From a virus (Duplodnaviria > Caudoviricetes): DNA of 55,666 nt. The DNA lies in the IMG/VR virus record IMGVR_UViG_3300018080_000024, positions 1-55,666 of that record; one strand, 5' to 3'. Positions 4,501-20,311 of the stretch are shown here, piece by piece (position 1 is the stretch's first letter; every line of letters starts with the position of its first letter). The position numbers and the translations under genes are program-made. Below the pieces are notes generated by a model, which was not told the DNA's origin, made no database searches, and saw only the letters and a list, made by a program, of their open reading frames with translations.

Positions 4501-7042
4501 CCTACGCGACGATCTGGCACGTGTGGCTGGCATTCTTGCCGAGCTGACCACCACCGTCACTAACGAAACAGCGAAGGCGCAGGCGGAGTTCTGGGCTGCC
4601 ACAAACGCGCTCGTGACGAACTTTGTCGCCGGTGCCGAGGCATTAAGCCAGCTGGTCAGTCTGGACCTCGGCGTCGAGATGGAGGGCGGCTGGGAGGCAT
4701 TCGAGTCAGCGTTGCTACAGACAAAAGAGGATCTGGAGCGCGTCGCGGGCATGCTAGACGACCTGGCCACTACCACTGACACCAAGGCCACGGCAGCCGC
4801 TGGAGAATGGTACAACGCCATACAGGGCGCGATATCTGGGTTCCTCACAGCATTCGAAGGACTCAAAAGGCTCAGCGAGGTAGCGTGGGTCAGGCCATCG
4901 CAAGTGGAATGGCTCACCATGCAATTATCAATCCGTGCCATGAACCTATATCTAGAGGCCTTGGCTCCACTTTTGGATGCGGGCACAGAGGCGCTGACGG
5001 CCATCGTTACAAATAGTGCGGCATTCTATGGTGCCATCGCAGATGCCGTCTCCGGGTTCATCGCGGCATTTCAAGGGCTCTACAACCTGACCACAGCATC
5101 CTGGATGGGGCCGACACGACTTCAATGGCTCACCATGCAGCTCACGATTCGGGCTATCAAGGTCAATCTAGAGGCGCTCGTCCCGCTTTTGGAGGCCGGG
5201 ACTGAGGCATCGACTACCATCGCCACGACTAGCGGGGCCTTTTACTCTGCTGTTGACCAGGCCATATCCGGCTTCTTGGAAGCTATGGATGAATTGAAGG
5301 CGCTCACTGAAGCCGCTTGGATGGGGCCAACGCGCCTGGAATGGCTCACCATAGAGCTCACGATCCAGGCTATCAAGGTCAATCTAGAGGCGCTCGTCCC
5401 GCTTTTGGAGGCCGGGACTGAGGCGTTGACTACCATCGCCACGACTAGCGGGACATTCTATGGCGCCGTAAGCGGAGTGATAGAGGGGTTCCTCAGCGCG
5501 TTCGCCAATCTGAAGGAGCTTGCGAAGGCGGCCTGGATGGGGCCAACGCGTCTGGAATGGTTCACCATGCAGCTCACAATCCAGGCTATCAAGATCAATC
5601 TAGAGGCGCTCGTGCCGCTATTGGAGGCGGGAACTGAGGAGCTAATCACGCTGGCCACGGCATCGGCCGGATTCTATGACGCGGCCAACGCGGTCATTGG
5701 CGGATTCCTGGCAGCGTTCCAGGCACTCAAAGAGTTCTACTCTACCGATTATGCGCTGCCCAACGTCTTAGAGCGCAGTGGATGGATCGACGACCTGCGA
5801 CTGGCCATCGAAGGACTAGCGACTGGCCTGTCGACACTCAGCCCTGATCTTGACGTCGATGCCGTATCTGCTGCTGCGGAGTTTTATTCCGACGTTCAAA
5901 CCATCATCGGGATCGTCAAGCCCGCCCTTGAGGCGCTGCGCGCTCTGGCTTTGTACGTGCCCTATCTGAGGCTGCCCGAGGCGATGGAAAACTTCAAAAC
6001 CGACTTGACCACGCTGGTGACCAAGCTCAGAGAGGTGGCCGACAGTTTCATGGGTACCGGAGAGGAGCCGACCGGACCGATGGAGGCCTCGGCGGCTATT
6101 GCTACAGCCATCGGGACAATGATCGGGATCGTAAAGCCTGCCATCGACGCCGTGAAAGCGCTGCTTGGGTATACGTCGTCGGTGAATCTACCCCAGGAGC
6201 TAGCTGATTTTGAGGCGGACCTACGGCTAGTGATTGGCAGCATCAAGAGGCTCGCCGACGATTATCGGGACAGCCTGATAAATGCAGAAGCCTTTGCAAC
6301 CACCGCTGGCACGATCATCGGCCTTATCGAGCCTACGTTACAGGCGCTTGCGGCACTAGTCAGTCAGAACAGCGAGGACTACGAGGCCGCTATGGACACG
6401 TTCGAGCGGACCGTCGGCGACATTATCAATACCATCAATCGCGTCCAGGGCGACATGTGGACATACGGCGTGCCACATGCGAAGGCGTTCGAGGCCGCAG
6501 CATTGGCAGTCAAGAATGCCATCGAGAAGGCGCTGAGCTACCTCAACGTGACCTTCGAGCCCTTCTTCACCCGCGGCGCATCCAGCCTAGGGCACCTCAT
6601 CGCGTCACTGGGTGAGCTGGAGGACAAGGGCGGGGGCGCTCTCAAACGATTCCGCAATGGCGCCGTGAGTGATTTCAATGACATCACGACGGCTGTCCGT
6701 GCGCTCATCACCGAGGTCGGAGCGTTGAATAGGGCGCTAGACGACGTTGATGTGCCGCCAGAGCTCGAAGGGCACAGCCCGCCACCGCTCGCTGACTGGA
6801 TGGGCCAAGTGGCGGATCAGGCCGAGAGAGCAGGCTCGGCCATGCGTCGCCTGATGATGCCCCAGCCGATGCTCATCCCCGCCCGAGTCTACAGGGGCGC
6901 AGGCGCTGGCGGGGGAACGACTACGAACAACAATGCGGCGGTGAACATCTACAACCCCTCGATGAGATCCGATGCGGATATGGTGGCGATTGAGTCGCGA
7001 ATCGAGCACACGGTTCTGCGCGCTTTGAGGAGGAAGGTCTGA
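1511..7042 (+). CDS. Tape measure protein
   Basis: 1843 aa Ala/Gly/Leu-rich helical protein; TMP-like GVGRLSPMILDNLGI core, Trp/Phe-spaced repeats (GDWDAAW), SPS motif; position in tail module. Confidence 0.92.
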   Translation: MALQKIGLATVLDDQGFGKGSAAYNKAIKGMEENTDRAAKGIGAGLKKIAQFAAGNLLAGGIQGLAQQTIEMVKAAGQIPGVAGAFEGLGGSIERMREASLGMVTDIELMKTFNSAAQLVSTDFAQKLPDAMSMLSKVSAATGEDMGFMLDSLVKGVGRLSPMILDNLGIQVNLTEANEAYAASIGKSAKDLTKAEQQTAVMNMTMEKLAINTASMPSIAGTAGQQMASFGVQVQNLRNDIGVALLPVMSAVMSVMAQLASKVFPLLVKAAQGLSSALMAVWNAGSRFGGLVAEIGGLLPGFVKEFVALKDSGFDPLRRAWVAFINVLGGERFFQLKAHFDAARKSVEELISKALNPVQTAFELLEGKVPTPVLFRLAQAVYRVRDAFINAVGFAKEFIGSLDITLPQLPDLSTLFTQGASAGGGLIDAIIGSDPAQLLMDRLSGLAEPIITAVTTTFEEVKAALSSGDAGGVLAALFGGAQEIGPLIAGLKPKLIGVAFELADSLAVALAEAFPDLAPTIEEFIRPALDIGKRLAGLFFDAQKLVKGAVMKIGESIGGTLLESLPDVMNILGKLGTLFESTFRSLLPVVTTAITTIGSIFERVFPVVLSTVQRVIPVVQSIIENMAPVVVKAIQIVGNIFEKVVPFAMDLIARMAEFIGSKMPQIAAIITAALEAIKIVFDTVWPAVQVIVEVAWTAIQSLISGALNIIQHIINTVLAVLQGDWDAAWQAIKQVPGEVLTAVAGVLGGILDGILKIFGTNKEDLWTTITETWEGLKSKIETKAGEIVSAITTKVAEWTKPVRNLIATFKGLGEDIMGGLKAGLEAAWSNVEQVFTKLIELLPAWAQKLLKSESPSQVFWDIGADIMEGLANGMSDSEAKVLKIIADAVEDFIEAFDQFVRTIQLAQDMSIEPDSFFSLQWLENFAGAITSILEEVKNALAAYKEGDIKRWKGKLSELVGVIEALASSMEAIAKITGNLDLDANVFDEAFFTVTLSGLRDDLARVAGILAELTTTVTNETAKAQAEFWAATNALVTNFVAGAEALSQLVSLDLGVEMEGGWEAFESALLQTKEDLERVAGMLDDLATTTDTKATAAAGEWYNAIQGAISGFLTAFEGLKRLSEVAWVRPSQVEWLTMQLSIRAMNLYLEALAPLLDAGTEALTAIVTNSAAFYGAIADAVSGFIAAFQGLYNLTTASWMGPTRLQWLTMQLTIRAIKVNLEALVPLLEAGTEASTTIATTSGAFYSAVDQAISGFLEAMDELKALTEAAWMGPTRLEWLTIELTIQAIKVNLEALVPLLEAGTEALTTIATTSGTFYGAVSGVIEGFLSAFANLKELAKAAWMGPTRLEWFTMQLTIQAIKINLEALVPLLEAGTEELITLATASAGFYDAANAVIGGFLAAFQALKEFYSTDYALPNVLERSGWIDDLRLAIEGLATGLSTLSPDLDVDAVSAAAEFYSDVQTIIGIVKPALEALRALALYVPYLRLPEAMENFKTDLTTLVTKLREVADSFMGTGEEPTGPMEASAAIATAIGTMIGIVKPAIDAVKALLGYTSSVNLPQELADFEADLRLVIGSIKRLADDYRDSLINAEAFATTAGTIIGLIEPTLQALAALVSQNSEDYEAAMDTFERTVGDIINTINRVQGDMWTYGVPHAKAFEAAALAVKNAIEKALSYLNVTFEPFFTRGASSLGHLIASLGELEDKGGGALKRFRNGAVSDFNDITTAVRALITEVGALNRALDDVDVPPELEGHSPPPLADWMGQVADQAERAGSAMRRLMMPQPMLIPARVYRGAGAGGGTTTNNNAAVNIYNPSMRSDADMVAIESRIEHTVLRALRRKV
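4886..5749 (+). repeat. Four 216-bp (72-aa) tandem repeats inside tape measure gene
   Basis: Trp codons of WVRPSQVEW / WMGPTRL(Q/E)W at 4886, 5102, 5318 and 5534, exactly 216 bp apart; shared TCTAGAGGC (LEAL) segment. Confidence 0.9.
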
Positions 7043-10358: not shown

Positions 10359-11366
10359 ATGCCACAGCCACGGAATGATGAACGAAATACCTTGGTGGGT
10401 GCAGACTTGATGCCCAACCAGTTTGAAATGATGCACGAGCCCATCGGCGATTTTGGTATCTGGAATGGACAGTTTGAAATCGCCCAAGCGCTGAGCCACC
10501 CAGACGGCGTGCCCGAGGGGTGGTACAAAATCTACACCTGGAATGATGCATACGCGACAGTCCAGACCGGCGGCTGGGCCGGAGCCAATTGTATGCGCTG
10601 CGGGAGCACGGTGGCCGGGCACTCGGGGGGGGTCTTGACTAGCTTGCGCTATATCCCCGTCAGCGAGGATCGAGACTATTACGTCGGCGCGGCCATGCGC
10701 GGATCGAATGCAACGGTACAAGGGGGGCTAGCCGTTCGTTGTTACAGCGCCGCCAAAGCGCTGACGGGAACGGTTGGAATCGGCGCATGGGCTCCGGGTG
10801 TAAACTGGGTCCAGCGCCAGTATCGCATAGGCCCAGCAGGGGACGCAGCGTTCCCCGCCAACACGCGCTACTGCCAAGTGGAGCTGCGAGGCAACACAAA
10901 CAGCGAGACGAATCAATACGTCGAGTTTGACGACGTACAGTTCCAGCAGAGCAAGGTCAGCTACTCGCCTCAGATTCACCTCATTCACGATTATGTCAAT
11001 TCCGCAGTCAACTTTACCACAACGGTCAATGCGTGGACACAAGATCCTCAGTCAGTGATGACGCTTACGACGGAAGAGCCCGCGCATATTTGGGTGTGGT
11101 ACACGATTAACCATGTAAATCAGACCCGAGGAGCCATTTTCACGCATCAGTTCCGAATTTTTTGCGACGGCGTAGCTGTACCGATAAACCACTTTTCCGG
11201 TAGCCCCGCTGCAAACCATCTGTTGATCTCTGGTATTAGCTCACGGCTCGGGCCTGTGGCGCGGGGCGCTCATACGATAGACTTTCGTGTGTATGTGCAG
11301 AACAACGTTGACTCCGTAGTTGTTACGAACCGCACGGGATTTTGCTTTTACACCAGACAAAACTAG
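10359..11366 (+). CDS. Putative receptor-binding tail protein with CBM-like jelly-roll
   Basis: 335 aa with WNGQFE...EFDDVQF carbohydrate-binding-module-like pattern; last large tail gene; AT-richer 3' third. Confidence 0.55.
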   Translation: MPQPRNDERNTLVGADLMPNQFEMMHEPIGDFGIWNGQFEIAQALSHPDGVPEGWYKIYTWNDAYATVQTGGWAGANCMRCGSTVAGHSGGVLTSLRYIPVSEDRDYYVGAAMRGSNATVQGGLAVRCYSAAKALTGTVGIGAWAPGVNWVQRQYRIGPAGDAAFPANTRYCQVELRGNTNSETNQYVEFDDVQFQQSKVSYSPQIHLIHDYVNSAVNFTTTVNAWTQDPQSVMTLTTEEPAHIWVWYTINHVNQTRGAIFTHQFRIFCDGVAVPINHFSGSPAANHLLISGISSRLGPVARGAHTIDFRVYVQNNVDSVVVTNRTGFCFYTRQN

Positions 11367-11374
11367 GAGGGGCG

Positions 11375-11551
11375 ATGAAGCTGCTATTCTCAGTAGCGCT
11401 ACAAACAGACGGTGGGCAGACGCTATACGAAGAAAGCTTGGAGGTAAAGGCTAGCGCCGAGGTGCTCAGGGGGCAGCCCTTGGCGAGCATGGCGCAAGCG
11501 ATTATGAATGCGCTAGTACGACAAGCGGACGCCGCGACGCAGGACGCATAG
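11375..11551 (+). CDS. Hypothetical protein
   Basis: 58 aa ORF with SD GGAGG. Confidence 0.55.
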   Translation: MKLLFSVALQTDGGQTLYEESLEVKASAEVLRGQPLASMAQAIMNALVRQADAATQDA

Positions 11552-11561
11552 GAGGTGATGT

Positions 11562-11897
11562 ATGGCTATCCCCCCGGCCAACGGAAGCGGCAACGGCATG
11601 GTAACCTGGAAGGAGGTACAACGCTGGCTGACGATCATCGCGCTGGTCGTCACTGTCGTGGGCGCGATGTGGATAGTGCGCGTGGAGATCGCGACGGTCA
11701 AAGCGCAGCAGGATGACATAATCCGTCGTATGGGCGTCTTCGAGCAGCGCCTGGACCGGCTGGACGAGCGTGCTCGCGTGATGGACATAGAGCAGTTGAC
11801 GGCGATCAGCGAAATCCAGGCAGTGGTGGCTCGGATCGAAACGGTGTTAGACAGTGTAGCTGTACGGTGTGAACGGCTAGAAGGAGGGTCTGGATGA
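11562..11897 (+). CDS. Membrane protein with coiled coil (lysis-cassette position)
   Basis: One TM segment (WLTIIALVVTVVGAMWIV) followed by heptad repeats; SD GGAGGT. Confidence 0.55.
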   Translation: MAIPPANGSGNGMVTWKEVQRWLTIIALVVTVVGAMWIVRVEIATVKAQQDDIIRRMGVFEQRLDRLDERARVMDIEQLTAISEIQAVVARIETVLDSVAVRCERLEGGSG

Positions 11898-12250
11898 ACG
11901 GCATGGAGATGGTCCTACAGTATGTGCTGCTGGTCATCACCGGTGGCGGTGCAGGCAAAGTCGTAGAGTGGCTCATCGAGAAGCTGGACCTGAGCGCGTG
12001 GAGCACCTTGGCGAAGCGCATCTTTGCCCTGGTGGTCTCGGCGATCCTAGGCGTCGGGGCCTGGGCAGTGTTGGCGTTGCTGGGCTTGGCGGCCCGGCTC
12101 GACATCGGCCTCCCGAGCGGCAGCTGGCCACAAACGGGCGAGGAGTGGCTCGTGACCGTGATGATTATCATTGTGACCACCTGGACCTCATCGCAGATGT
12201 TCCACGCGGTCTCGCGGGACGCCAGGACGTCCGCGCTGCGGCGTCCATAG
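11894..12250 (+). CDS. Putative holin
   Basis: 118 aa with about three hydrophobic segments and a basic C-terminus; end of tail operon. Confidence 0.6.
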   Translation: MNGMEMVLQYVLLVITGGGAGKVVEWLIEKLDLSAWSTLAKRIFALVVSAILGVGAWAVLALLGLAARLDIGLPSGSWPQTGEEWLVTVMIIIVTTWTSSQMFHAVSRDARTSALRRP

Positions 12251-12279
12251 TGTAGCGGCCCCATCACCCCCATTTCCCC

Positions 12280-12305
12280 CCGCCCCGCCCTCACCGGCGG
12301 GGCGG
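12280..12305 (+). terminator. Repeated GC hairpin (terminator-like), copy 1
   Basis: CCGCCCCGCC-ctcacc-GGCGGGGCGG; same hairpin at 19486 and 41528, always just upstream of a promoter cassette. U-tract is weak here. Confidence 0.6.
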
Positions 12306-12317
12306 CTCTCGTTGGGC

Positions 12318-12456
12318 GGAATCTTTACGCAAAATTTACGCAATCTTTACGGATAGCTATAGACGTAGGCGGGAAACTATGCTATAATATCGTCGTAAGG
12401 TTAAGGACGGGGCGGCGATAGGGACTGCCCCCAGACACCCGAAGGAGACGAACGAA
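12318..12456 (+). promoter_or_regulatory. Repeated promoter cassette P1 (TTTACG boxes, sigma70 promoter, leader hairpin, RBS)
   Basis: TTTACG at 12324, 12335 and 12346; -35 TAGACG 12360-12365; 17-bp spacer; extended -10 TGcTATAAT (12383-12388); near-identical to P2-P4. Confidence 0.9.
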
Positions 12457-12756
12457 ATGGCAACCGACTTCCAAAAGATTGTGAAGGCTTTGCTTATAGA
12501 CTCCGACTTACGCATTAGCAAGATCGTTTGCAAGCGAAACGGGACCATTCATGTGATGCGCCGTACTAGCATGGGGACTACGAAGTCACTCAAGTCCTGG
12601 AATACGGATGTGTTCAAAGCCTTGTTCGCTCCTTTGAACGGGGACATTATGATCGACGGATATAACATGGTCAACACTGCAACGCTAGATGGCTACTTGG
12701 TTACCATTGTCGCACCCGCAGCGCCAGTGTATCTGCCATATATGAGAGCGGACTAG
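12457..12756 (+). CDS. Hypothetical early protein
   Basis: 99 aa ORF with SD AAGGAG directly after P1; AT-richer than the genome average. Confidence 0.7.
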   Translation: MATDFQKIVKALLIDSDLRISKIVCKRNGTIHVMRRTSMGTTKSLKSWNTDVFKALFAPLNGDIMIDGYNMVNTATLDGYLVTIVAPAAPVYLPYMRAD

Positions 12757-12764
12757 CCCAAGCA

Positions 12765-12828
12765 CGCGAAAGCCCGGGGCACACACCCCGGGCTCGCCGG
12801 GAAATCGGCCCGGCCTGATGAGCGGAGA
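12765..12828 (+). ncRNA. Type II hammerhead ribozyme HH1
   Basis: cgc-GAAA-stem III (GCCCGGGG/CCCCGGGC)-UC-stem I (GCCGGG aaatcgg CCCGGC)-CUGAUGA-gcg; complete catalytic core; predicted cleavage after C12795. Confidence 0.9.
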
Positions 12829-12848
12829 CAAACACACGGGAGGGCACA

Positions 12849-13058
12849 ATGGAGCGGCTTATGAACGGGCAGGCAGACGCGGTAGCAGTATTGCTCGACA
12901 ATCGCTGGACGATGGACGTATGCTGGAGCCACGAAGATCACTACACGGTTGTGCTCCAAAACGCCTCCCACGTGATCCTGGGCGTGGGCGATACGGTGGC
13001 CGACGCTACAGCAGCCGCAGAGCGCGACGCGCAGCGATGGCTCGACGAGAGGGCATAG
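12849..13058 (+). CDS. Hypothetical early protein
   Basis: 69 aa ORF with SD GGAGG after HH1. Confidence 0.65.
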   Translation: MERLMNGQADAVAVLLDNRWTMDVCWSHEDHYTVVLQNASHVILGVGDTVADATAAAERDAQRWLDERA

Positions 13059-13151
13059 CAACGAGCTCACCGACGTCCGGCAGATCGTCGCCGCAGTGGA
13101 AACCATCGGACGGGCGCTGGGATTGTCATTGCGTCGGTAATACATTCGCAC

Positions 13152-13179
13152 GGCTGGCGTGCTACCCGGCGCGCCAGCC
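13152..13179 (+). promoter_or_regulatory. Intergenic hairpin upstream of ArdC RBS
   Basis: GGCTGGCGTGC-tacccg-GCGCGCCAGCC, 11 bp including one G-U. Confidence 0.5.
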
Positions 13180-13197
13180 AACCCTTAGGAGGTCAGC

Positions 13198-14007
13198 ATG
13201 TCCAAGTACACGGTCAAGCAGTTAGCAGATCGCATCGCTGATGGCGCGGAGCAGTTGGTACAGGATGGTGCGTGGGACGAGTACCTGAAATTCATCTCGC
13301 GATTCCCCGGCTACAGCTTCGGGAACCTCATGCTCATCTACACCGCCCGGCCCGATGCATCGCGTGTCGCCGGATACCGCACGTGGCAGAAGATGGGCCG
13401 CCAGGTTCGCAAGGGTGAGAAGGGCATCGCGATCTTGGCCCCGCACCAGTGGAAGCGCAAGGACGAGGATGACGACCAAGACGTCTCGCGGCGGACCGGC
13501 GTCGGATTCCACGTCACCTATGTCCGGGACGTGAGCCAAACCGACGGCGACCCATTGCCTGAGATTGCTCCGCCGTTGAGCGGCGATGACCCCAACGGGA
13601 TCCTGGGCCAGGTCCTAGGTGCCATCAAGCGCCGTGGCCTAGTCGTCGAGTTCACCGACGAGATGGTCGCCGACGGGGCTACGAACGGGCGCACCGTCCG
13701 CCTCCACACGGAGCGGGCCGCAACGCACCAGGTCGCCGTCGCGCTCCATGAACTTGCTCACGTCATCCTCGGCCACACGTCCAATCGTCGTGATGTGCCT
13801 CAGGCAGCGATGGAGTGGGAGGCCGAGTCGGTGTCCTACGTCGTCTGCGAGCGGCTGGGGATAGACTCCTCGACCAACGCGCTGGGCTATGTCCTGTCGT
13901 GGGCACATGGCGATCCCGAGGCGGTCCGTGAATACATCGCCGAGGAGGGCAACCTGATCCTCACCGTCGCCAGTGAGATCGTCGAGGCCGTTGCCGTAAA
14001 CGCCTAA
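13198..14007 (+). CDS. ardC: ArdC-like antirestriction protein (ssDNA-binding N-domain plus zincin-like HExxH domain)
   Basis: YSFGNLMLI, VAGYRTWQKMGRQVRKGEKGIAILAP, DVSQTDG, HELAH and EWEAESVSY motifs. Confidence 0.85.
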   Translation: MSKYTVKQLADRIADGAEQLVQDGAWDEYLKFISRFPGYSFGNLMLIYTARPDASRVAGYRTWQKMGRQVRKGEKGIAILAPHQWKRKDEDDDQDVSRRTGVGFHVTYVRDVSQTDGDPLPEIAPPLSGDDPNGILGQVLGAIKRRGLVVEFTDEMVADGATNGRTVRLHTERAATHQVAVALHELAHVILGHTSNRRDVPQAAMEWEAESVSYVVCERLGIDSSTNALGYVLSWAHGDPEAVREYIAEEGNLILTVASEIVEAVAVNA

Positions 14008-14015
14008 GTGTCTCG

Positions 14016-14153
14016 GGAATCTTTACGCAAAATTTACGCTATCTTTACGGATAGCTATAGACGTAGGCGGGGAACTATGCTATAATATCGTCGTAAGGTT
14101 AAGGACGGGGCGGCGATAGGGACCACCCCCAGACACCCAGAGGAGACAGCAGA
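14016..14153 (+). promoter_or_regulatory. Repeated promoter cassette P2
   Basis: Three TTTACG boxes; -35 TAGACG 14058-14063; -10 TATAAT 14081-14086; no upstream terminator hairpin. Confidence 0.9.
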
Positions 14154-14363
14154 ATGGCCCGCCAGAATTATCCGCCCACCCACGTATACAAATTCGCCGC
14201 GCACATCTGCTTCGCTGATACCCGCGCCGAGGCCGACGCGATCAAAGCCGACGCCGACGCCTACATCAACGCGCAGCGGGCAAACCTGCGCCCCGCGACG
14301 ATCAAGAAGCTGGAGGGCATCATCAGTGACGCGATCCTCGACTGGGAGGATTTCAACAGCTAG
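14154..14363 (+). CDS. Hypothetical early protein
   Basis: 69 aa ORF with SD GAGGAG after P2. Confidence 0.7.
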   Translation: MARQNYPPTHVYKFAAHICFADTRAEADAIKADADAYINAQRANLRPATIKKLEGIISDAILDWEDFNS

Positions 14364-14365
14364 TA

Positions 14366-14429
14366 CGCGAAAGCCCGGGGCGCTTGCCCCGGGCTCGCCG
14401 GGAAATCGGCCCGGCCTGATGAGCGGAGA
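14366..14429 (+). ncRNA. Type II hammerhead ribozyme HH2
   Basis: GAAA 14369-14372; stem III GCCCGGGGC-gctt-GCCCCGGGC; UC 14395-14396; stem I; CUGAUGA 14416-14422; gcg. Confidence 0.9.
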
Positions 14430-14444
14430 GGAAAAAGGAGGAAG

Positions 14445-14771
14445 ATGACCAAGCGATGGAGTTGGGCTTACGCCACAGTGCTGTCGCCAGCGGCCAAGGC
14501 CGCTGGTGCGCACATGGCAGAGCGCGGCCGAGTGCGATTCCCCCGCACGAAATGCCAGATTGCCTGGCTGAACGACGCGGCAGGCTACCCGCGAAACGTT
14601 ATCGCCGTGCTGGCGAGTGACGAAGAGTGGGAAACGTCGGTGGAGGTCCGAGACCATGACCGTGTCGTTACCTGTGCGTTCGCGGATGGGGACGACGTAA
14701 TCATCCATGCACACGGAACGGCTGCGGTCGACTCCGTGAGCGTCCCGCGCGGGTGGACGCTGGTTGGCTAG
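14445..14771 (+). CDS. Hypothetical protein bracketed by two hammerheads
   Basis: 108 aa ORF with SD AAGGAGG, between HH2 and HH3. Confidence 0.7.
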   Translation: MTKRWSWAYATVLSPAAKAAGAHMAERGRVRFPRTKCQIAWLNDAAGYPRNVIAVLASDEEWETSVEVRDHDRVVTCAFADGDDVIIHAHGTAAVDSVSVPRGWTLVG

Positions 14772-14779
14772 AGGCGGCA

Positions 14780-14841
14780 CGCGAAACCTAGCGGATAACC
14801 GCTAGGTCGCCGGGAAATCGGCCCGGCCTGATGAGTGGAGA
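14780..14841 (+). ncRNA. Type II hammerhead ribozyme HH3 (variant stem III, GUC triplet)
   Basis: GAAA 14783-14786; stem III CCTAGCGG-ataa-CCGCTAGG (different sequence, fully paired); UC 14807-14808; CUGAUGA 14828-14834; stem II cgc/gug with G-U. Confidence 0.92.
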
Positions 14842-14863
14842 CAAACACACGGGAGGGCACACA

Positions 14864-15085
14864 ATGAACGAGTCATACGAGCTCTTTGTAGATCGTAGCG
14901 CAGATCCGGCGGACATCGCGGCTATGACCCAAGACGAAATCGAGAACGACATCGAGGCCATGGTCCGCGAGGGGTGCCTGGACAACGAGCCAGACGCGAC
15001 CGAGGCAGAGATCGGCCAAGCACGCGAGTTTGCAGCAGCAGAGATTCTGTCTGAGGCGAAACGTCTGGCGGGCATCGAGGACTAG
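14864..15085 (+). CDS. Hypothetical acidic protein
   Basis: 73 aa, very Asp/Glu-rich; RBS block shared with the gene at 12849. Confidence 0.7.
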   Translation: MNESYELFVDRSADPADIAAMTQDEIENDIEAMVREGCLDNEPDATEAEIGQAREFAAAEILSEAKRLAGIED

Positions 15086-15158
15086 CCACACTCGTGAGAA
15101 CCGGGCTACCTGTCCGGCGGCCCGGTCCGACGAGCGATTATCAATCACTGGAGGGACG

Positions 15159-15464
15159 ATGAACAGAGCACAAGACCTGCGAGACCTGAAGGCCGCCGCG
15201 GACTTTGAGCTTGTCTGCGCCGAGGCCGGCGTGAGGATCGGATATTGTGTGCTGCGCGAGGACTTGGGCGTGTTGACCGCAGGGTCCAAAGTGGCGATCA
15301 TAGACTTCTACGCCGAGGGCATCACGTTCACGCCGGAGGATTGGCAGGGTCCGTTGCCCCACCTGGACGACCCCGAGGACATCGGGAACACGACCTGGGT
15401 GGACCAATACGGACACCAAGGCGTTATTATGGGGTTCTTGCCGCGGTTATTGGATACGTACTAG
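15159..15464 (+). CDS. Hypothetical protein
   Basis: 101 aa ORF with SD GGAGG. Confidence 0.65.
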   Translation: MNRAQDLRDLKAAADFELVCAEAGVRIGYCVLREDLGVLTAGSKVAIIDFYAEGITFTPEDWQGPLPHLDDPEDIGNTTWVDQYGHQGVIMGFLPRLLDTY

Positions 15465-15476
15465 CCGCCACCACGA

Positions 15477-15514
15477 GCGCCGGGACTGCCAACCGGCGCG
15501 ACTTTATCACTGGA
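15477..15514 (+). repeat. Intergenic hairpin repeat, copy A
   Basis: GCGCCGG-gactgccaa-CCGGCGC then ACTTTATCACTGGA; related copies at 15738 and 20289. Confidence 0.8.
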
Positions 15515-15522
15515 GGGATGAA

Positions 15523-15723
15523 ATGGAGACCAAGTACCCGAATGTCACAGTCCGGTTGGTGGGGGAGGACGGGAATGCATTTGCCATCCTGGGCCGGGTT
15601 ACAAAGGCTATGCAGCGGGAGGGCGTATCGAAGGCCGAGCGCGACGCGTACATGGCGGAGGCTACGGCTGGCAGTTACGAAGAGCTGATTGCCACCACGA
15701 TGCGTTGGGTGAACGTCAGGTAG
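15523..15723 (+). CDS. Conserved small phage protein
   Basis: 66 aa with LVGEDGNAFAILGRV...SYEEL motif, recognised from small phage hypothetical proteins. Confidence 0.75.
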   Translation: METKYPNVTVRLVGEDGNAFAILGRVTKAMQREGVSKAERDAYMAEATAGSYEELIATTMRWVNVR

Positions 15724-15733
15724 CGGAATCTAT

Positions 15734-15775
15734 AGTGGCGCCGGTTGGCAGTCCCGGCGCCACTTTATCACTGGA
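15734..15775 (+). repeat. Intergenic hairpin repeat, copy B (loop inverted)
   Basis: GCGCCGG-ttggcagtc-CCGGCGC then ACTTTATCACTGGA; the loop is the reverse complement of the copy A loop. Confidence 0.8.
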
Positions 15776-15791
15776 CGAGGAAGGGACACCG

Positions 15792-16178
15792 ATGACGAAA
15801 CAGGCACGGCTACCGCTAGGCCCCGGCAAAGAGCCTACCCTGCCGGTCCGCCAATATACTGCCATGGCCGAGGAGTACCCAGACGCGATCTTGCTCATGC
15901 GCCTCGGGGACTTCTACGAGGTCATTGGGTGCAACGCCATCACCGTTGCAGAGCTGTGTGACGGGGTGCTGACATTGCGCCCAGATGGGAGCGTGGACAA
16001 GAGCAGCGTGCGCGGGCGGCGGGCTATGGTCGGAATCCCGGCAGCGGAGTTGGACCAGGCAGTGAGGCGGCTCGTGCGCTGCGGCTTCAAGGTCGCCATC
16101 GCCGAGCAGGTTGGGCGGCTACCTCGCGGCCAGATTGCCCGGCGCGTCGCACGGGTTCATCGTTGTGACGAGCAGTGA
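15792..16178 (+). CDS. Stand-alone MutS domain I (mismatch-binding) protein
   Basis: QY...YPDAILLMRLGDFYE...MVGIP...LVRCGFKVAIAEQ...RRVARV matches MutS_I, including the Phe-X-Glu motif; only 128 aa. Confidence 0.88.
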   Translation: MTKQARLPLGPGKEPTLPVRQYTAMAEEYPDAILLMRLGDFYEVIGCNAITVAELCDGVLTLRPDGSVDKSSVRGRRAMVGIPAAELDQAVRRLVRCGFKVAIAEQVGRLPRGQIARRVARVHRCDEQ

Positions 16179-16198
16179 CGAGAAACGGAGGTAGAGCG

Positions 16199-16447
16199 AT
16201 GACTTGCGAATGCTGTGACGGGTACGGATACGAGGACTATCCCTGCGAGACCATGGTGCCGGATGGAGACACCATGATCGCCATAGAGGGCATGGAGCGT
16301 GTCGAGTGTCCCGAGTGTGTCGGGCGCGATATCTGCCCGCAGTGTGGTTCGCCGGAGGGACTGGATGGCGTCGGTGACGACTATTGGTGTCGTGAGTGTG
16401 GCTGGGCCAGGAACTGGGAGACGGCGCCCGAGCACTTGGCCTTATGA
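16199..16447 (+). CDS. Zinc-finger protein
   Basis: 82 aa with CECCDG, CPEC, CPQC and CREC motifs. Confidence 0.7.
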   Translation: MTCECCDGYGYEDYPCETMVPDGDTMIAIEGMERVECPECVGRDICPQCGSPEGLDGVGDDYWCRECGWARNWETAPEHLAL

Positions 16448-16465
16448 GCAGAGGAGGGGCATAGC

Positions 16466-16867
16466 ATGAGGATACTGGAAGCAGCGCGAGTATTGGGCTT
16501 GTCGCCAGACCGGGTGCGCCGGTATATCCGTGACGGATACATCGAGGCGGATCACGGCGACAACGAGTGGAACCTGGACGTGAGCGCCGAGGAGCTGGAC
16601 CGGTTCTTGCGAGACGTGGTGCCTGTGATGCGCCACAAGGAGCCCGTCGAGGTTCCTGAGACGCCGACGGTATGGCGGGTGAACGAGGTCGGGGAGCTAT
16701 ACGACGTGGAGCCCGCGACGGTGCGCAAGTGGATCTATGACGGTGTCCTGCCGGCGCGCAAGGTTGGGTCGGAATGGAGCATCCGTCGTAAGGACCTGAT
16801 AAGGTTTCGCCCGCGTCGCCGTGGGCGGCCCTTTGCCTACGGAGTGAAGGAGGGAGAGTCACTGTGA
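16466..16867 (+). CDS. Tandem Xis/MerR-like (HTH_17, BldC-like) DNA-binding protein
   Basis: Two domains: EAARVLGLSPDRVRRYIRDGYIEA and EVGELYDVEPATVRKWIYDGVLPARKVGSEWSI; C-terminal RGRP. Confidence 0.85.
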   Translation: MRILEAARVLGLSPDRVRRYIRDGYIEADHGDNEWNLDVSAEELDRFLRDVVPVMRHKEPVEVPETPTVWRVNEVGELYDVEPATVRKWIYDGVLPARKVGSEWSIRRKDLIRFRPRRRGRPFAYGVKEGESL

Positions 16868-17013
16868 AGCTCGTTGAGCTCTATCGTCGGGAGCGCTGGG
16901 TCGCCTACGCGGTAGCCGCCGCCGTCACCATTGGCGCTGGCCTGATCGTTCGCCATCCCATCGCGACCATCGTATTGTCAATCACGATCCTAGCAGGTTT
17001 GGAGGAGAGATGA
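16864..17013 (+). CDS. Small membrane protein
   Basis: 49 aa GTG-start ORF with two hydrophobic stretches, overlap-coupled on both sides. Confidence 0.55.
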   Translation: MKLVELYRRERWVAYAVAAAVTIGAGLIVRHPIATIVLSITILAGLEER

Positions 17014-17765
17014 AACTGAGAGATTGGCCGGGAGACATCCCGTTCCGCATGATCCCGGAGCTCACCGATGCCGAACATGGCTGGTGGGCGTGTGAAGGCG
17101 GACTGTTCGTCGATGAGCCAGACGGGAGCCTGGATGACGAGGGCTTGTGGGAGGCATTCGAGCGATATGCAGATCGCCTCCAAGCCGTGAGCCGGGCCCT
17201 GCCCTGGGTGCTGGGCGACTTTTTCAATCTGGCCGAGACACGCTGGGGCGAGTCCTATGCGCAGCTAGCCGAGGCTACGGGCTACCACGAGACGACGCTC
17301 TACAACGCCAAGTGGGTGTGCTCTCGCGTGCCCATGGAGATCCGGTTCCACGCGCCGTCGTTCAGTCACGCCCAGGCCGTCGCGCCGTTGCCGGACGTGG
17401 AGATGCGCGAGGCCTACCTGCGCATGGCCGAGGACAACGGCTGGACCCGCGATGACCTCCGGCTAGCAGTGCGGGCGATCCTCAACGAGGCGACGCCGAA
17501 GTGGTCCGAGGAAGGCCCAGATGCCCACGATGGCGAGATAGTGCCCGTGGCGGCCATCCACAACCTGCCCGACGTGCGCCGGTCCTTGACGGCCTATCGG
17601 TCACAGTTTGAGCGACTGATCTTTGCGCTGGAGGACATGGTCGAGCTCGAGCTTGCCGATGACGTCCGTGATCTATGGGGCGCGCTGAATCGGCTGGTCG
17701 GGCGAGTAGACGCGATGCTTGAGGCCATGGACGCCGTTGAGAGCGGCCAGGCCTACCCAGACTAG
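17010..17765 (+). CDS. LmbU-like DNA-binding protein
   Basis: WVLGD...YAQLAEATGY...TLYNAKWV...SFSHAQAVA...WTRDDLR pattern of LmbU-type phage proteins. Confidence 0.6.
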   Translation: MKLRDWPGDIPFRMIPELTDAEHGWWACEGGLFVDEPDGSLDDEGLWEAFERYADRLQAVSRALPWVLGDFFNLAETRWGESYAQLAEATGYHETTLYNAKWVCSRVPMEIRFHAPSFSHAQAVAPLPDVEMREAYLRMAEDNGWTRDDLRLAVRAILNEATPKWSEEGPDAHDGEIVPVAAIHNLPDVRRSLTAYRSQFERLIFALEDMVELELADDVRDLWGALNRLVGRVDAMLEAMDAVESGQAYPD

Positions 17766-17775
17766 GAGGACACGC

Positions 17776-19473
17776 ATGAGCAGCATCATCGGGCTCCACA
17801 TCGAGCGACCGGACCGCCCTGACTGGCTCCTCGACGTCTTGCGCCAGGCGGGTCCGGCCATGCCCTACCAAACCTGGATCGTCCACGGCGGCGAGACGCT
17901 GCCGCGATATGAAGGGCAGACCAATATCGCCCGTCCGTGGATAGGTGGCGACACCGTGGAGCATCACCTGATCCGACAAGGACGGGCCGGGGGCGTCGCC
18001 TACGCCGAGCGCGTCCTGGACATCGCCCGAACCGTGGGCGAGGCCGACTATTGGCTCGGCCCCAATGAGCCGCCGGTGGAGATGCCAGAGCACCGACAGA
18101 ACCTCGTGTCGTTCTACCTTGGCTTCGCGGACAAGCTCCACTCCGCAGGCATCGAGATCGGCGGCCCGTGCGATGGCGTGGGGCGGATAGGGTCCGGCGA
18201 TCCCTACCTGGACGCCACATACCCGGACTGGCGAGATCGTGTCGGGGAGGCGGCGTTGGACCTGAAATCACTCTATGCCGTCGTGGACATCATCATGACC
18301 CACGCCTACCTCAAGCGCGCCGGGGCGGACTATGAGGAGGTGGACGGCTGGCTCCAGCGGAGCAAGTTCATCGTGACGGCGATCCCTGCGCTGTCACATC
18401 TGCCGTGGGTCGCAACGGAGACCGGCCTAGACATCGGCGGTGGCCTGAATGATGGCTGGCTCGGGCCCGGAGGCCCCGACCCGCTACGCTACATCGAGAT
18501 CATCCGCGACATCAACTGGCTGCTTCCAGAGTGGTTCGTGGGCGCGTGCCTGTTCGGATGCCTCCCCTACCAGCGGTGGGCGAAATGGGAGCTGTCGGAG
18601 GAGTTCTGCCGGCGCTATCTCCTGCCCTTCGTGGCGACAAACCCTCTGCGCCAAGGGTCCCCCGCTCCAACGGATCCGGTGATCCAGCACGAGCCCTTCG
18701 CGCTGGAGGATTGGCACGATGACCACAAAGGGCCGATGAATGTCCGTGAGTTCGCCATGTGGCTCAAGACGGTCGAGCCTGTAGCGCCGGTCCGCGAGCT
18801 ATGGCTACACCATACGGCGACGGAGGCTGTGCCGTGGAGCCGCGATACGATTTTCAATGTGCGAGACTACTATAACAGGCTGCTGTGGACTGACGCCGCT
18901 GGCCGCCAGCACCGAGGTTGGACGGCGGGACCGCACCTGTTCATCGGCGACGAGGGCATCTGGCCCTTCAGTCTCATGGACCGGGCCGGAGTTCACGCCA
19001 GGGGCCACAACACCGACGAGGCACGGGGAATCGAGATGATCGGCACGTTTGACGACGCCCCGCCATCACCGGACACGTGGCGTAACACAATGGCCGCGCT
19101 GGCCGTGATGTGTAACGTCTGGGGCCTGGATCCTGAAGAGGCGATCCACTTTCACCGCGACGACTCCGATAAGACGTGCCCGGGGAAGGCGGTCCACAAG
19201 CTCGACGTCATTTATGCGGTACGTGAGATCATGCGTGATGACCCGCTAGTCGGAGGCATGTCTCTTCCGACGCCGACGACAGAGGGCATGACGACGGTCC
19301 ACGAGCGTGTTCGAGCCGTCCGCTGGTACCTCGAGGAGCTAGTCCGTTGGCAGGAGCGGCTGCTGGAGCATCCGTCCAATAGCGATGACATTATCAATCG
19401 CCAGCGGGCCTACGTGCTACACCTCATCGACATCGCCTATCTGCTGGAGGATGATACGCGGGAGGAGGCGTAA
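17776..19473 (+). CDS. Putative endolysin: N-terminal clan-A-like glycoside hydrolase plus Amidase_2 domain
   Basis: GPNEP and ATETG acid/base and nucleophile-like motifs; amidase LHHTA...GVHARGHN...GIEMIG...HFHRD...KTCPG; SD GGAGG before ATG 17776. Confidence 0.8.
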   Translation: MSSIIGLHIERPDRPDWLLDVLRQAGPAMPYQTWIVHGGETLPRYEGQTNIARPWIGGDTVEHHLIRQGRAGGVAYAERVLDIARTVGEADYWLGPNEPPVEMPEHRQNLVSFYLGFADKLHSAGIEIGGPCDGVGRIGSGDPYLDATYPDWRDRVGEAALDLKSLYAVVDIIMTHAYLKRAGADYEEVDGWLQRSKFIVTAIPALSHLPWVATETGLDIGGGLNDGWLGPGGPDPLRYIEIIRDINWLLPEWFVGACLFGCLPYQRWAKWELSEEFCRRYLLPFVATNPLRQGSPAPTDPVIQHEPFALEDWHDDHKGPMNVREFAMWLKTVEPVAPVRELWLHHTATEAVPWSRDTIFNVRDYYNRLLWTDAAGRQHRGWTAGPHLFIGDEGIWPFSLMDRAGVHARGHNTDEARGIEMIGTFDDAPPSPDTWRNTMAALAVMCNVWGLDPEEAIHFHRDDSDKTCPGKAVHKLDVIYAVREIMRDDPLVGGMSLPTPTTEGMTTVHERVRAVRWYLEELVRWQERLLEHPSNSDDIINRQRAYVLHLIDIAYLLEDDTREEA

Positions 19474-19485
19474 ATCCCTAAGTGC

Positions 19486-19520
19486 CCGCCCCGCCATCAC
19501 CGGCGGGGCGGCGTCTTTGT
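19486..19520 (+). terminator. Repeated GC hairpin terminator, copy 2
   Basis: CCGCCCCGCC-atcacc-GGCGGGGCGG then cgtctttgt. Confidence 0.65.
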
Positions 19521-19525
19521 CCCGG

Positions 19526-19660
19526 GGAATTTACGCAATCTTTACGGATAACCCACAGTTGGTGGTAGACTGAATCCTGATTATATGCTATAATATCGTC
19601 GTAAGGTTAAGGACGGGGCGGCGATAGGGACCACCCCCAGACACCCAGAGGAGACGACAG
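19526..19660 (+). promoter_or_regulatory. Repeated promoter cassette P3 (variant)
   Basis: TTTACG at 19530 and 19541; -35 TAGACT 19566-19571; 17-bp spacer; TGcTATAAT (19589-19594); same leader as P2. Confidence 0.88.
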
Positions 19661-19858
19661 ATGGCAGACACGATGGCAATGGCGGTCAAAGATTTGGACG
19701 CGCGGTTAGCGGTAGCATGCAACAAGGCACCGAAGATGGATTTGGACGGAAGCCGCTATGACTGCTTCGCCCCAACGCTAGACTGGGTTGCGAGACAATA
19801 TGGGGTGAACGCTGGAGACCTGTATCTCGCATTTTGCGACACCTACGCCAACGACTAG
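19661..19858 (+). CDS. Hypothetical early protein
   Basis: 65 aa ORF with SD GAGGAG after P3. Confidence 0.7.
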   Translation: MADTMAMAVKDLDARLAVACNKAPKMDLDGSRYDCFAPTLDWVARQYGVNAGDLYLAFCDTYAND

Positions 19859-19864
19859 CTAGTA

Positions 19865-19928
19865 CGCGAAAGCCCGGGGCAAGCGCCCCGGGCTCGCCGG
19901 GAAATCGGCCCGGCCTGATGAGCGGAGA
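19865..19928 (+). ncRNA. Type II hammerhead ribozyme HH4
   Basis: GAAA 19868-19871; stem III GCCCGGGGC-aagc-GCCCCGGGC; UC 19894-19895; CUGAUGA 19915-19921; gcg. Confidence 0.9.
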
Positions 19929-19950
19929 ACACCCGAAGGAGACGAACGAA

Positions 19951-20280
19951 ATGCATTGGTATCAGCACACAGTCGACAGCCTGAGACGCGACATCGAGAC
20001 CAACCTGGACACCGCCGCCAAGGTCTGCCGTATGATCGAGGTCAACCAGACCCGCGACGAGCGCCGCACCGCCACCACCATCCACGACAACGACCAGGGC
20101 TTCAGCCAGGCCGACGCCCCGTACCTCCAGCCGATAGCGGACAAGCTGTGGACGGGGATGGACCCGCGAGACTTGGCCGGGCAGGAAAAGGTGATTCTCA
20201 AAGCGTACACCGCCAAGTACGCGGCGCAGTACCTGGAGTTCAGCCGCTACTACTACCGGCTCAACAACCCGATTTGCTAG
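19951..20280 (+). CDS. Hypothetical protein
   Basis: 109 aa; QTRDE...T.HDNDQGFSQADA motif seen in phage hypotheticals; RBS block identical to that of P1. Confidence 0.7.
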   Translation: MHWYQHTVDSLRRDIETNLDTAAKVCRMIEVNQTRDERRTATTIHDNDQGFSQADAPYLQPIADKLWTGMDPRDLAGQEKVILKAYTAKYAAQYLEFSRYYYRLNNPIC

Positions 20281-20288
20281 CATGACCA

Positions 20289-20311
20289 GCGCCGGGACTG
20301 CCAACCGGCGC
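20289..20311 (+). repeat. Intergenic hairpin repeat, copy C
   Basis: GCGCCGG-gactgccaa-CCGGCGC, identical to copy A. Confidence 0.8.

Follow-up and report, generated by a model that had tools for sequence, protein, structure and literature searches.

What becomes of a messenger RNA (mRNA) whose only gene is enclosed by two self-cleaving ribozymes? The question is raised by the early region of a phage (Duplodnaviria; Caudoviricetes) held as IMG/VR virus record IMGVR_UViG_3300018080_000024. The record is a complete 55,666-bp viral genome with direct terminal repeats, and it was analyzed at its full length, referred to here as the window. Two candidate hammerhead ribozymes in this region, HH2 and HH3, bracket a single open reading frame (ORF) of 108 amino acids (aa). 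An initial annotation of the DNA had proposed that cleavage at both would release a coding RNA of 412 nucleotides (nt) and that this RNA could circularize. The release is well supported, as judged from the sequence, and the fate of the product appears to be a simpler one. The hammerheads between the early genes probably split a polycistronic RNA into linear mRNAs with hairpin-protected ends, and the 412-nt piece would be one of these.

Candidate Type II Hammerheads between the Early Genes

Four elements of the window, all on the + strand, in the early region and between cistrons, are very probably genuine type II hammerheads, to judge by their motifs and predicted folds. HH1 lies at 12764–12833 with a predicted cut after 12795, HH2 at 14365–14434 with a cut after 14396, and HH3 at 14779–14846 with a cut after 14808. 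HH4, at 19864–19933 with a cut after 19895, is a fourth copy beyond those in the initial annotation. The core CUGAUGA ... CGAAA ... UC|G is present in all four copies, with the A15.1-U16.1 pair and C17 at the cut, and the core-adjacent pairs (10.1-11.1, 1.1-2.1, and 15.1-16.1) are standard in each of them. The rules by which core bases and core-adjacent pairs were accepted are those set out by Perreault et al. (2011; PMC3088659). Loops close both stem I and stem III, and stem II is open, which is the type II topology. Stem I is 6 bp long, stem III 9–11 bp, and stem II 3 bp (CGC with GCG or GUG). Stem I and its loop form a variant of their own, GCCGGG-AAAUCGG-CCCGGC, and a 27-nt block comprising stem I and CUGAUGAG is identical in the four copies. 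This block occurs four times in the window and not once in 100 shuffles; a looser hammerhead pattern also occurs four times, against a shuffle mean of 0.19.

Scored with the Rfam model Hammerhead_II, HH1 to HH4 reach 35.6, 33, 41.2, and 30.2 bits, respectively. When folded in isolation, the minimum free energy (MFE) structure is the hammerhead three-way junction for HH1 (in a segment of 76 nt), HH2, and HH4, and the centroid structure of HH3 shows stems I and III. Both of these stems are predicted to be very stable local hairpins.

Covariation in Stem III

Inside HH1, HH2, and HH4, variation is limited to the loop of stem III. In HH3, the sequence of stem III is wholly unlike that of the other three copies, yet it still pairs. 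To place these four in a wider class, a pattern that fixed only the core and stem I, and left stem III unconstrained, was used to collect 62 viral contigs, and a narrower pattern gave eight metagenome contigs. Together with the window, these loci contain 51 distinct stem III sequences. Counted from the junction, pairs 1–5 are standard in 46–51 of the 51 sequences; with the partner slid by one position, the figure falls to 19–34. At pair 2, G-C occurs 26 times, C-G 24 times, and A-U once. The covariation is thus strong for a stem that was outside the selection made by the search, and points to a conserved fold. The exact 27-mer of the block had no match in viral_contigs or metagenome_contigs, and a looser 29-mer had none in genome_contigs.

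Placement of the Motifs and Related Gene Units

In the window, each hammerhead begins 4–10 nt past a stop codon and stands 22–29 nt ahead of the next start codon. The same placement recurs across the class. Among the 61 hammerheads with this class of stem I that have enough flanking sequence to judge, taken from the window and all fetched loci, 54 are flanked by an ORF end (at most 30 nt upstream) and by a ribosome-binding site (RBS) and start codon (at most 70 nt downstream). At random positions, this arrangement was found in 17 of 355.

A pair of hammerheads around a single ORF is not special to the window, as read from the sequences of these contigs. Predicted units of this kind are present in viral contigs L017 (611 nt, with an ORF of 186 aa), L041 (369 nt, 105 aa), and L038 (239 nt, 53 aa). 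A further example is L006, an IMG/VR contig of 13,115 bp, in which five predicted type II hammerheads lie within 2.3 kb (10790–13087) and delimit units of 414, 291, 715, and 815 nt. Each of these four units has a single gene, and two of them encode pentapeptide-repeat proteins. A separate observation was made in the L041 unit, which is on the reverse strand (4734–5102 in oriented coordinates). In its predicted fold, a GCCUCCU located close to the 3′ end pairs with the RBS AGGAGGC, which may reflect anti-Shine-Dalgarno pairing or chance.

The 412-nt Unit

Cleavage at HH2 and HH3 would yield an RNA of 412 nt from 14397 to 14808 (+ strand), with a 5′-OH on the stem I hairpin and, at the other end, a stem III hairpin carrying a 2′,3′-cyclic phosphate. 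Reading of the sequence confirmed the coordinates and lengths in the initial annotation, both for this product and for the 1601-nt interval upstream of it (12796–14396), which includes ardC. The letters that it quoted for a joined product also agree with positions 14799–14808 and 14397–14431. Its statement that the 108-aa ORF and its RBS are all that HH2 and HH3 enclose is borne out by three features. The ORF (14445–14771, + strand) is the sole sizeable forward ORF in the HH2–HH3 interval, an AAGGAGG ribosome-binding site is located upstream of it, and G+C at the third codon position (GC3) is highest in its frame. Intact cores, compensatory changes in stem III, and a placement between cistrons that holds throughout the class give good support, at the level of sequence, to the release of a 412-nt single-gene RNA. 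The hammerheads of the window delimit units of 1601, 412, and 5087 nt in all, each with different genes.

The 108-aa protein is an orphan. It belongs to no Pfam or PHROG family, has no relatives in viral_contigs, and found only itself among 5.8 billion clusters. A scan of 1.84 billion representatives returned the protein itself and one protein of 795 aa, the latter through nine short stretches that were taken as low complexity. The ESM Atlas gave nothing usable, and the model of the protein itself has a pLDDT of 0.47. The locus does recur in DNA from elsewhere. Two sequencing runs, both of DNA, and no RNA run matched the region 12300–20100. They are X1, the possible source, and X2, with a share of 0.05. 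X2 is a seawater run from a different study. One X2 contig corresponds to 14403–14665 with a single change, C>T at 14450, which by our reading falls in the third base of codon 2 and would be synonymous. Another corresponds to 14675–14841 with two changes, one of which (14798 A>G) is in the stem III loop of HH3. From these near-identical copies it follows that the 108-aa gene and the downstream HH3 circulate beyond the source sample.

Promoter Modules and a Model for Processing

The hammerheads are part of a larger repeated layout. Three copies of a 132-nt module (repeat family D1) occur on the + strand of the window, each with a putative promoter of the form TAGACG/T-17-TGcTATAAT. P1 (12318–12449) has TAGACG-17-TGcTATAAT at 12360–12388, followed by a 5′ untranslated region shared among the copies, an RBS, and a 99-aa ORF (12457–12756). 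P2 (14016–14147) is 95% identical to P1 and precedes a 69-aa ORF (14154–14363), and P3 (19524–19655), 76% identical to P1, precedes a 65-aa ORF (19661–19858). Three times, then, the order is promoter, one short orphan ORF, hammerhead (HH1, HH2, and HH4, respectively), and further genes. Three TTTACG repeats, about 11–12 nt apart, lie upstream of the promoter in each module and look like binding sites for a regulator. As the initial annotation had noticed, P2 has no terminator hairpin upstream. GC-rich hairpins are present on the + strand before P3 (19485–19512) and, nearly identical, before P1 (12279–12306); the scan flagged only the one before P3 as terminator-like.

From this layout we propose the following course of events. 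Host RNA polymerase would start at the sigma-70-like promoters P1, P2, and P3. Each hammerhead would fold while emerging from the polymerase and then cut itself, giving separate linear mRNAs. In the RNA downstream of each cut, the 5′-OH would sit immediately at the 6-bp G+C hairpin of stem I, and CUGAUGAGCGGAGA, the RBS, and the start codon would come next. The upstream RNA would end in the G+C stem III hairpin, one C, and the 2′,3′-cyclic phosphate. RNases E or J, which depend on a 5′-monophosphate, 3′ exonucleases, and poly(A) polymerase should all act poorly on such ends. The 412-nt piece would then be a monocistronic linear mRNA for the orphan 108-aa protein, and the likely benefit would be message stability and translation that is independent of neighboring cistrons.

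Precedent for such processing exists. In three prophage clusters described by Perreault et al. (2011; PMC3088659), all sites were cleaved in vitro, and the ardA cluster of A. tumefaciens was also cleaved in E. coli; processing into single-gene mRNAs was proposed. The processing of polycistronic transcripts is still given as a suggested, unproven role in a 2019 review.

Several observations weigh against the processing model, in which cleavage in vivo is inferred from motifs, structure, covariation, and placement, and the stabilizing effect of the new ends is expected from general knowledge of bacterial RNA decay. The gathering score of Hammerhead_II (RF02276) is 37 bits and is passed by HH3 only; HH1, HH2, and HH4 fall below it (E-values, calculated for one genome, from 3e-7 to 9e-6). 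HH3 alone was listed in the whole-window Rfam scan at the E-value threshold, and the other three came from a 4-kb scan and the genome search. A pseudoknot between loop I and the tail is not evident, the best complementarity being 2 bp in HH1–HH3 and 4 bp, farther downstream, in HH4; therefore, cleavage at cellular Mg2+ may be slow. Complementarity of at least 4 bp between loop I and the tail is found in 48 of the 62 class members. The account of type II hammerheads in Perreault et al. (2011; PMC3088659) places a pseudoknot of at least four pairs in the majority of them, as a common and not an obligatory feature. Stem II, of only 3 bp, has a pairing probability of about zero in the equilibrium fold of an 808-nt precursor. 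With a weak stem II and no pseudoknot, activity would rest on co-transcriptional folding and possibly on an unrecognized tertiary contact.

A sub-family with the same stem I was noted among the collected loci (metagenome loci L067 and L070–L074 and viral locus L015). Its members have ACGCGAAA, a stem I of GCCGGG/CCCGGC, a loop of the form AAANNGG, and a tail of GCG(A/G)A, and, as in the window, stem II is 3 bp long and a pseudoknot is not evident. A different tertiary contact may be made by the AAA that is conserved in loop I of this sub-family.

Possible Conditional Cleavage

One alternative is that cleavage takes place only under certain conditions. A ribosome terminating 4–10 nt upstream would mask part of stem III together with the 5′ strand of stem II; alternatively, cleavage would require Mg2+ or a protein. 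The hammerheads would then act as timers or switches for the genes that lie downstream of each early promoter. The proximity of the stop codons to the motif and the lack of evidence for the known tertiary contact would suit this scheme, and Perreault et al. (2011; PMC3088659) suggested regulated cleavage for slower phage variants. Against it, no ligand-binding or switch element is visible, and stems I and III are predicted to be highly stable local hairpins. Overall, we regard conditional cleavage as unlikely, and were it to occur it would refine the processing model; it would not stand as a mechanism of its own.

Intergenic Modules and Possible Cassette Exchange

The repetition of intergenic sequence invites another explanation, namely that the hammerheads are mainly duplicated intergenic modules that serve as homology boundaries for the swapping of gene cassettes from phage to phage, with cleavage being incidental or weak. 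The identical 27-nt block indeed travels with other repeated pieces: the tails of HH1 and HH3 are the same, and the tail of HH4 is the leader of P1. The genes bracketed by hammerheads also vary between contigs. One X2 contig resembles the window from 12794 to 13062, and the first of these positions is no more than 2 nt from the HH1 cut. This border hint comes from one contig, and the strict coding-strand placement of the motifs between stop codon and RBS, seen throughout the class, fits a role at the level of RNA. Moreover, the variation confined to the loop in HH1, HH2, and HH4 and the re-paired stem III of HH3 argue that the fold is under selection, and not sequence identity alone. It is therefore improbable that exchange, and not cleavage, is the main business of these elements.

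Some features of the intergenic sequences are of interest in their own right. The stretch of X2 matching 12794–13062 carries the 69-aa gene after HH1 in a more diverged form, and the neighboring stretches are absent or unlike; this pattern suggests that mosaic exchange took place with borders at the hammerheads. A GCGCCGG...CCGGCGC hairpin is repeated at 15473–15499 and 20285–20311, after two different genes, and a common leader ending in CACTGGAGGG stands before two genes, at 15493–15514 and 15754–15775. The intergenic regions of the phage seem to be built from a small set of modules.

Proposed Circularization of the 412-nt RNA

The initial annotation proposed that the 412-nt product could have its ends joined, through the reverse hammerhead reaction or an RtcB-type ligase of the host, and so become an exonuclease-resistant and translated circular mRNA. 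This is very unlikely to be its fate: the proposal finds no support in the present analysis, the ends of the RNA lie in separate hairpins, the phage brings no ligase, and closure is structurally disfavored.

The chemistry of the ends would permit the reaction. A 5′-OH and a 2′,3′-cyclic phosphate, as left by cleavage, are substrates of RtcB, according to the 2019 review and PMC7229834, and RtcB is widespread: 10 of 14 control genomes had it. In E. coli, native RtcB circularized the ribozyme-flanked coding RNAs of the engineered Tornado system (PMC12628768). Any enzyme would have to come from the host, as searches of the record for RtcB, RNA ligase, T4-type Rnl1, 2′-5′ ligase, and reverse transcriptase (RVT_1) found none, in line with the initial annotation, which had seen no reverse transcriptase or RNA ligase gene. 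Self-ligation by the hammerhead gives only 1%–3% circles in retrozymes, against 30%–80% with RtcB, in the figures quoted in PMC7229834. The anatomy of the type II motif is also unfavorable. The upstream product is held by stem II only, and the strands of the pseudoknot, where there is one, are both on the downstream product. This anatomy would suit product release and not re-ligation.

The initial annotation pointed out that joining the two ends of the RNA would rebuild a complete hammerhead from the HH3 and HH2 halves. This is true, and, as stem II is the same in all four hammerheads, a chimeric HH3/HH2 core could form. The same geometry arises, however, wherever two ribozymes in tandem share a stem II, and it does not count as evidence for circles. 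The circle would hold a complete hammerhead with stable stems I and III and could therefore re-cut itself. In the predicted linear fold, the 3′ strand of stem II (nt 27–32) pairs instead with nt 336–341, which could slow re-cleavage of a circle. In the circular fold, the rebuilt 3-bp stem II has a probability of about 0.0006, and 5.9 kcal/mol would be needed to enforce it. Since equilibrium folding counts against the 3-bp stem II equally in the precursor and in the circle, it does not discriminate between the two fates.

The MFE structure of the 412-nt unit has no pairs between the first 60 nt and the last 60 nt, its end-to-end duplex energy is no better than that of shuffles (z = +0.64), and it lacks a ligation stem like that of Tornado. 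Among nine hammerhead-bracketed units tested, none beats the shuffles (z from −1.31 to +0.64), and both units from the window that were tested have no end-to-end pairs. Three of the four units of L006 have 16–17 MFE pairs between their ends (the range becomes 16–19 if the L041 unit is included), and in the two inspected (10829–11242 and 11534–12248) a 4-bp stem II is kept and extended into a long-range helix that closes the gene. Compared with shuffles, the L006 units give z values of −0.5 to −1.3 and do not exceed them. If any phage unit circularizes, L006 is the better candidate, since its units keep the 4-bp stem II in the predicted folds.

As to precedent, circular or spliced products of prophage clusters were proposed by Perreault et al. 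and not detected (data not shown; PMC3088659). No natural circular mRNA derived from a phage hammerhead was found in literature searches, and closer precedents may be held in the supplementary figures of that paper. We thus think it very improbable that closure by a host RtcB-type ligase turns the 412-nt RNA, and comparable single-gene units of other phages such as those of L006, into translated circular mRNAs. If it were true, engineered ribozyme-assisted circular mRNA would have a natural counterpart in phages, which could keep early or anti-defense messages alive during the activity of host RNases or RNA-targeting defenses.

Relation to Known Hammerhead Systems

The linear processing model has its nearest parallel in the prophage clusters of Perreault et al. 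(2011, PLoS Comput Biol; PMC3088659), where several hammerheads flank single genes, including ardA. Both cases show several type II hammerheads that lie between genes on one strand and enclose single genes or short blocks, and both lie in an early or accessory region of the phage beside an anti-restriction gene, ardA in theirs and ardC here. The proposed role, the cutting of a polycistronic RNA, is the same. The window differs from the published clusters (PMC3088659) in its own stem I and loop variant, a stem II of 3 bp, no evident pseudoknot, a promoter module in three copies, and an orphan as the bracketed gene, and it is known here from sequence alone. The arrangement was thus already described in 2011, and the window adds an example and no new mechanism; the idea of a circular product is also not new.

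Retrozymes and viroid-like RNAs offer a second comparison. As in those systems, two hammerheads would free a piece of a few hundred nt with a 5′-OH and a 2′,3′-cyclic phosphate, the ends of which could rebuild the ribozyme (PMC7229834, PMC7761336). The retrozymes and viroid-like RNAs covered in these sources are tandem non-coding repeats with type I or III motifs, circularized by tRNA ligase and copied by reverse transcription or RNA replication (PMC7229834, PMC7761336). Unlike retrozymes, the phage has unique protein-coding units in a DNA genome, type II motifs, no reverse transcriptase found (RVT_1), and no end-to-end pairing.

Engineered systems are also instructive. RiboJ is an insulator in which a hammerhead with an added hairpin removes the upstream RNA, so that the downstream gene has a fixed 5′ end. 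It is an engineered part made from a satellite RNA. The phage hammerheads are, by comparison, natural and repeated four times, and the uncoupling of cistrons that they would bring about is akin to that by ribozyme insulators. Tornado discards most of each ribozyme. The 412-nt unit resembles Tornado, as presented in PMC12628768, in that an RBS, a coding region, and a stop codon stand between two self-cleaving ribozymes, and in the ends, which RtcB would accept. In Tornado, the products are described as having "sticky ends" ready for ligation (PMC12628768); in the phage unit, the ends are in separate hairpins and a whole hammerhead would stay in the circle.

Since 2011 it has remained open what purpose the numerous hammerheads of phage genomes serve. 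The phage studied here would be a clean case for the bench, with three promoter copies, each with a short gene and a hammerhead, and one gene that is doubly enclosed. The layout would allow the effect of ribozyme-made ends on the life and translation of an mRNA to be measured, and circular RNA to be tested for directly.

Surrounding Genes

The HH1–HH2 interval of 1601 nt contains the ardC gene (13198–14007, + strand), the predicted product of which is an ArdC-like anti-restriction protein with ArdcN and M78 peptidase domains. Family searches identified, among the other genes of the early region, a helix-turn-helix protein, an amidase-domain protein, and several orphans. Farther along the genome there are genes for a DnaC/IstB-like ATPase, a DUF5131 protein, a cytosine methyltransferase, and a capsid protein. 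No tRNA genes were found in the record. Searches for close relatives found none: megablast of 12000–16000 and blastn of HH3 against phages gave no match, the ArdC protein had no relatives in viral_contigs, and the capsid protein had none in genome_contigs.

Two further observations concern the genes themselves. TAG is the stop codon in 10 of 15 genes checked, including every gene directly upstream of a hammerhead, a share that may be high for a genome of 62% G+C. Among the early genes in the HH3–HH4 interval, 15792–16178 encodes a protein of 128 aa that consists of the mismatch-binding domain I of MutS alone (Pfam E = 1.4e-19).

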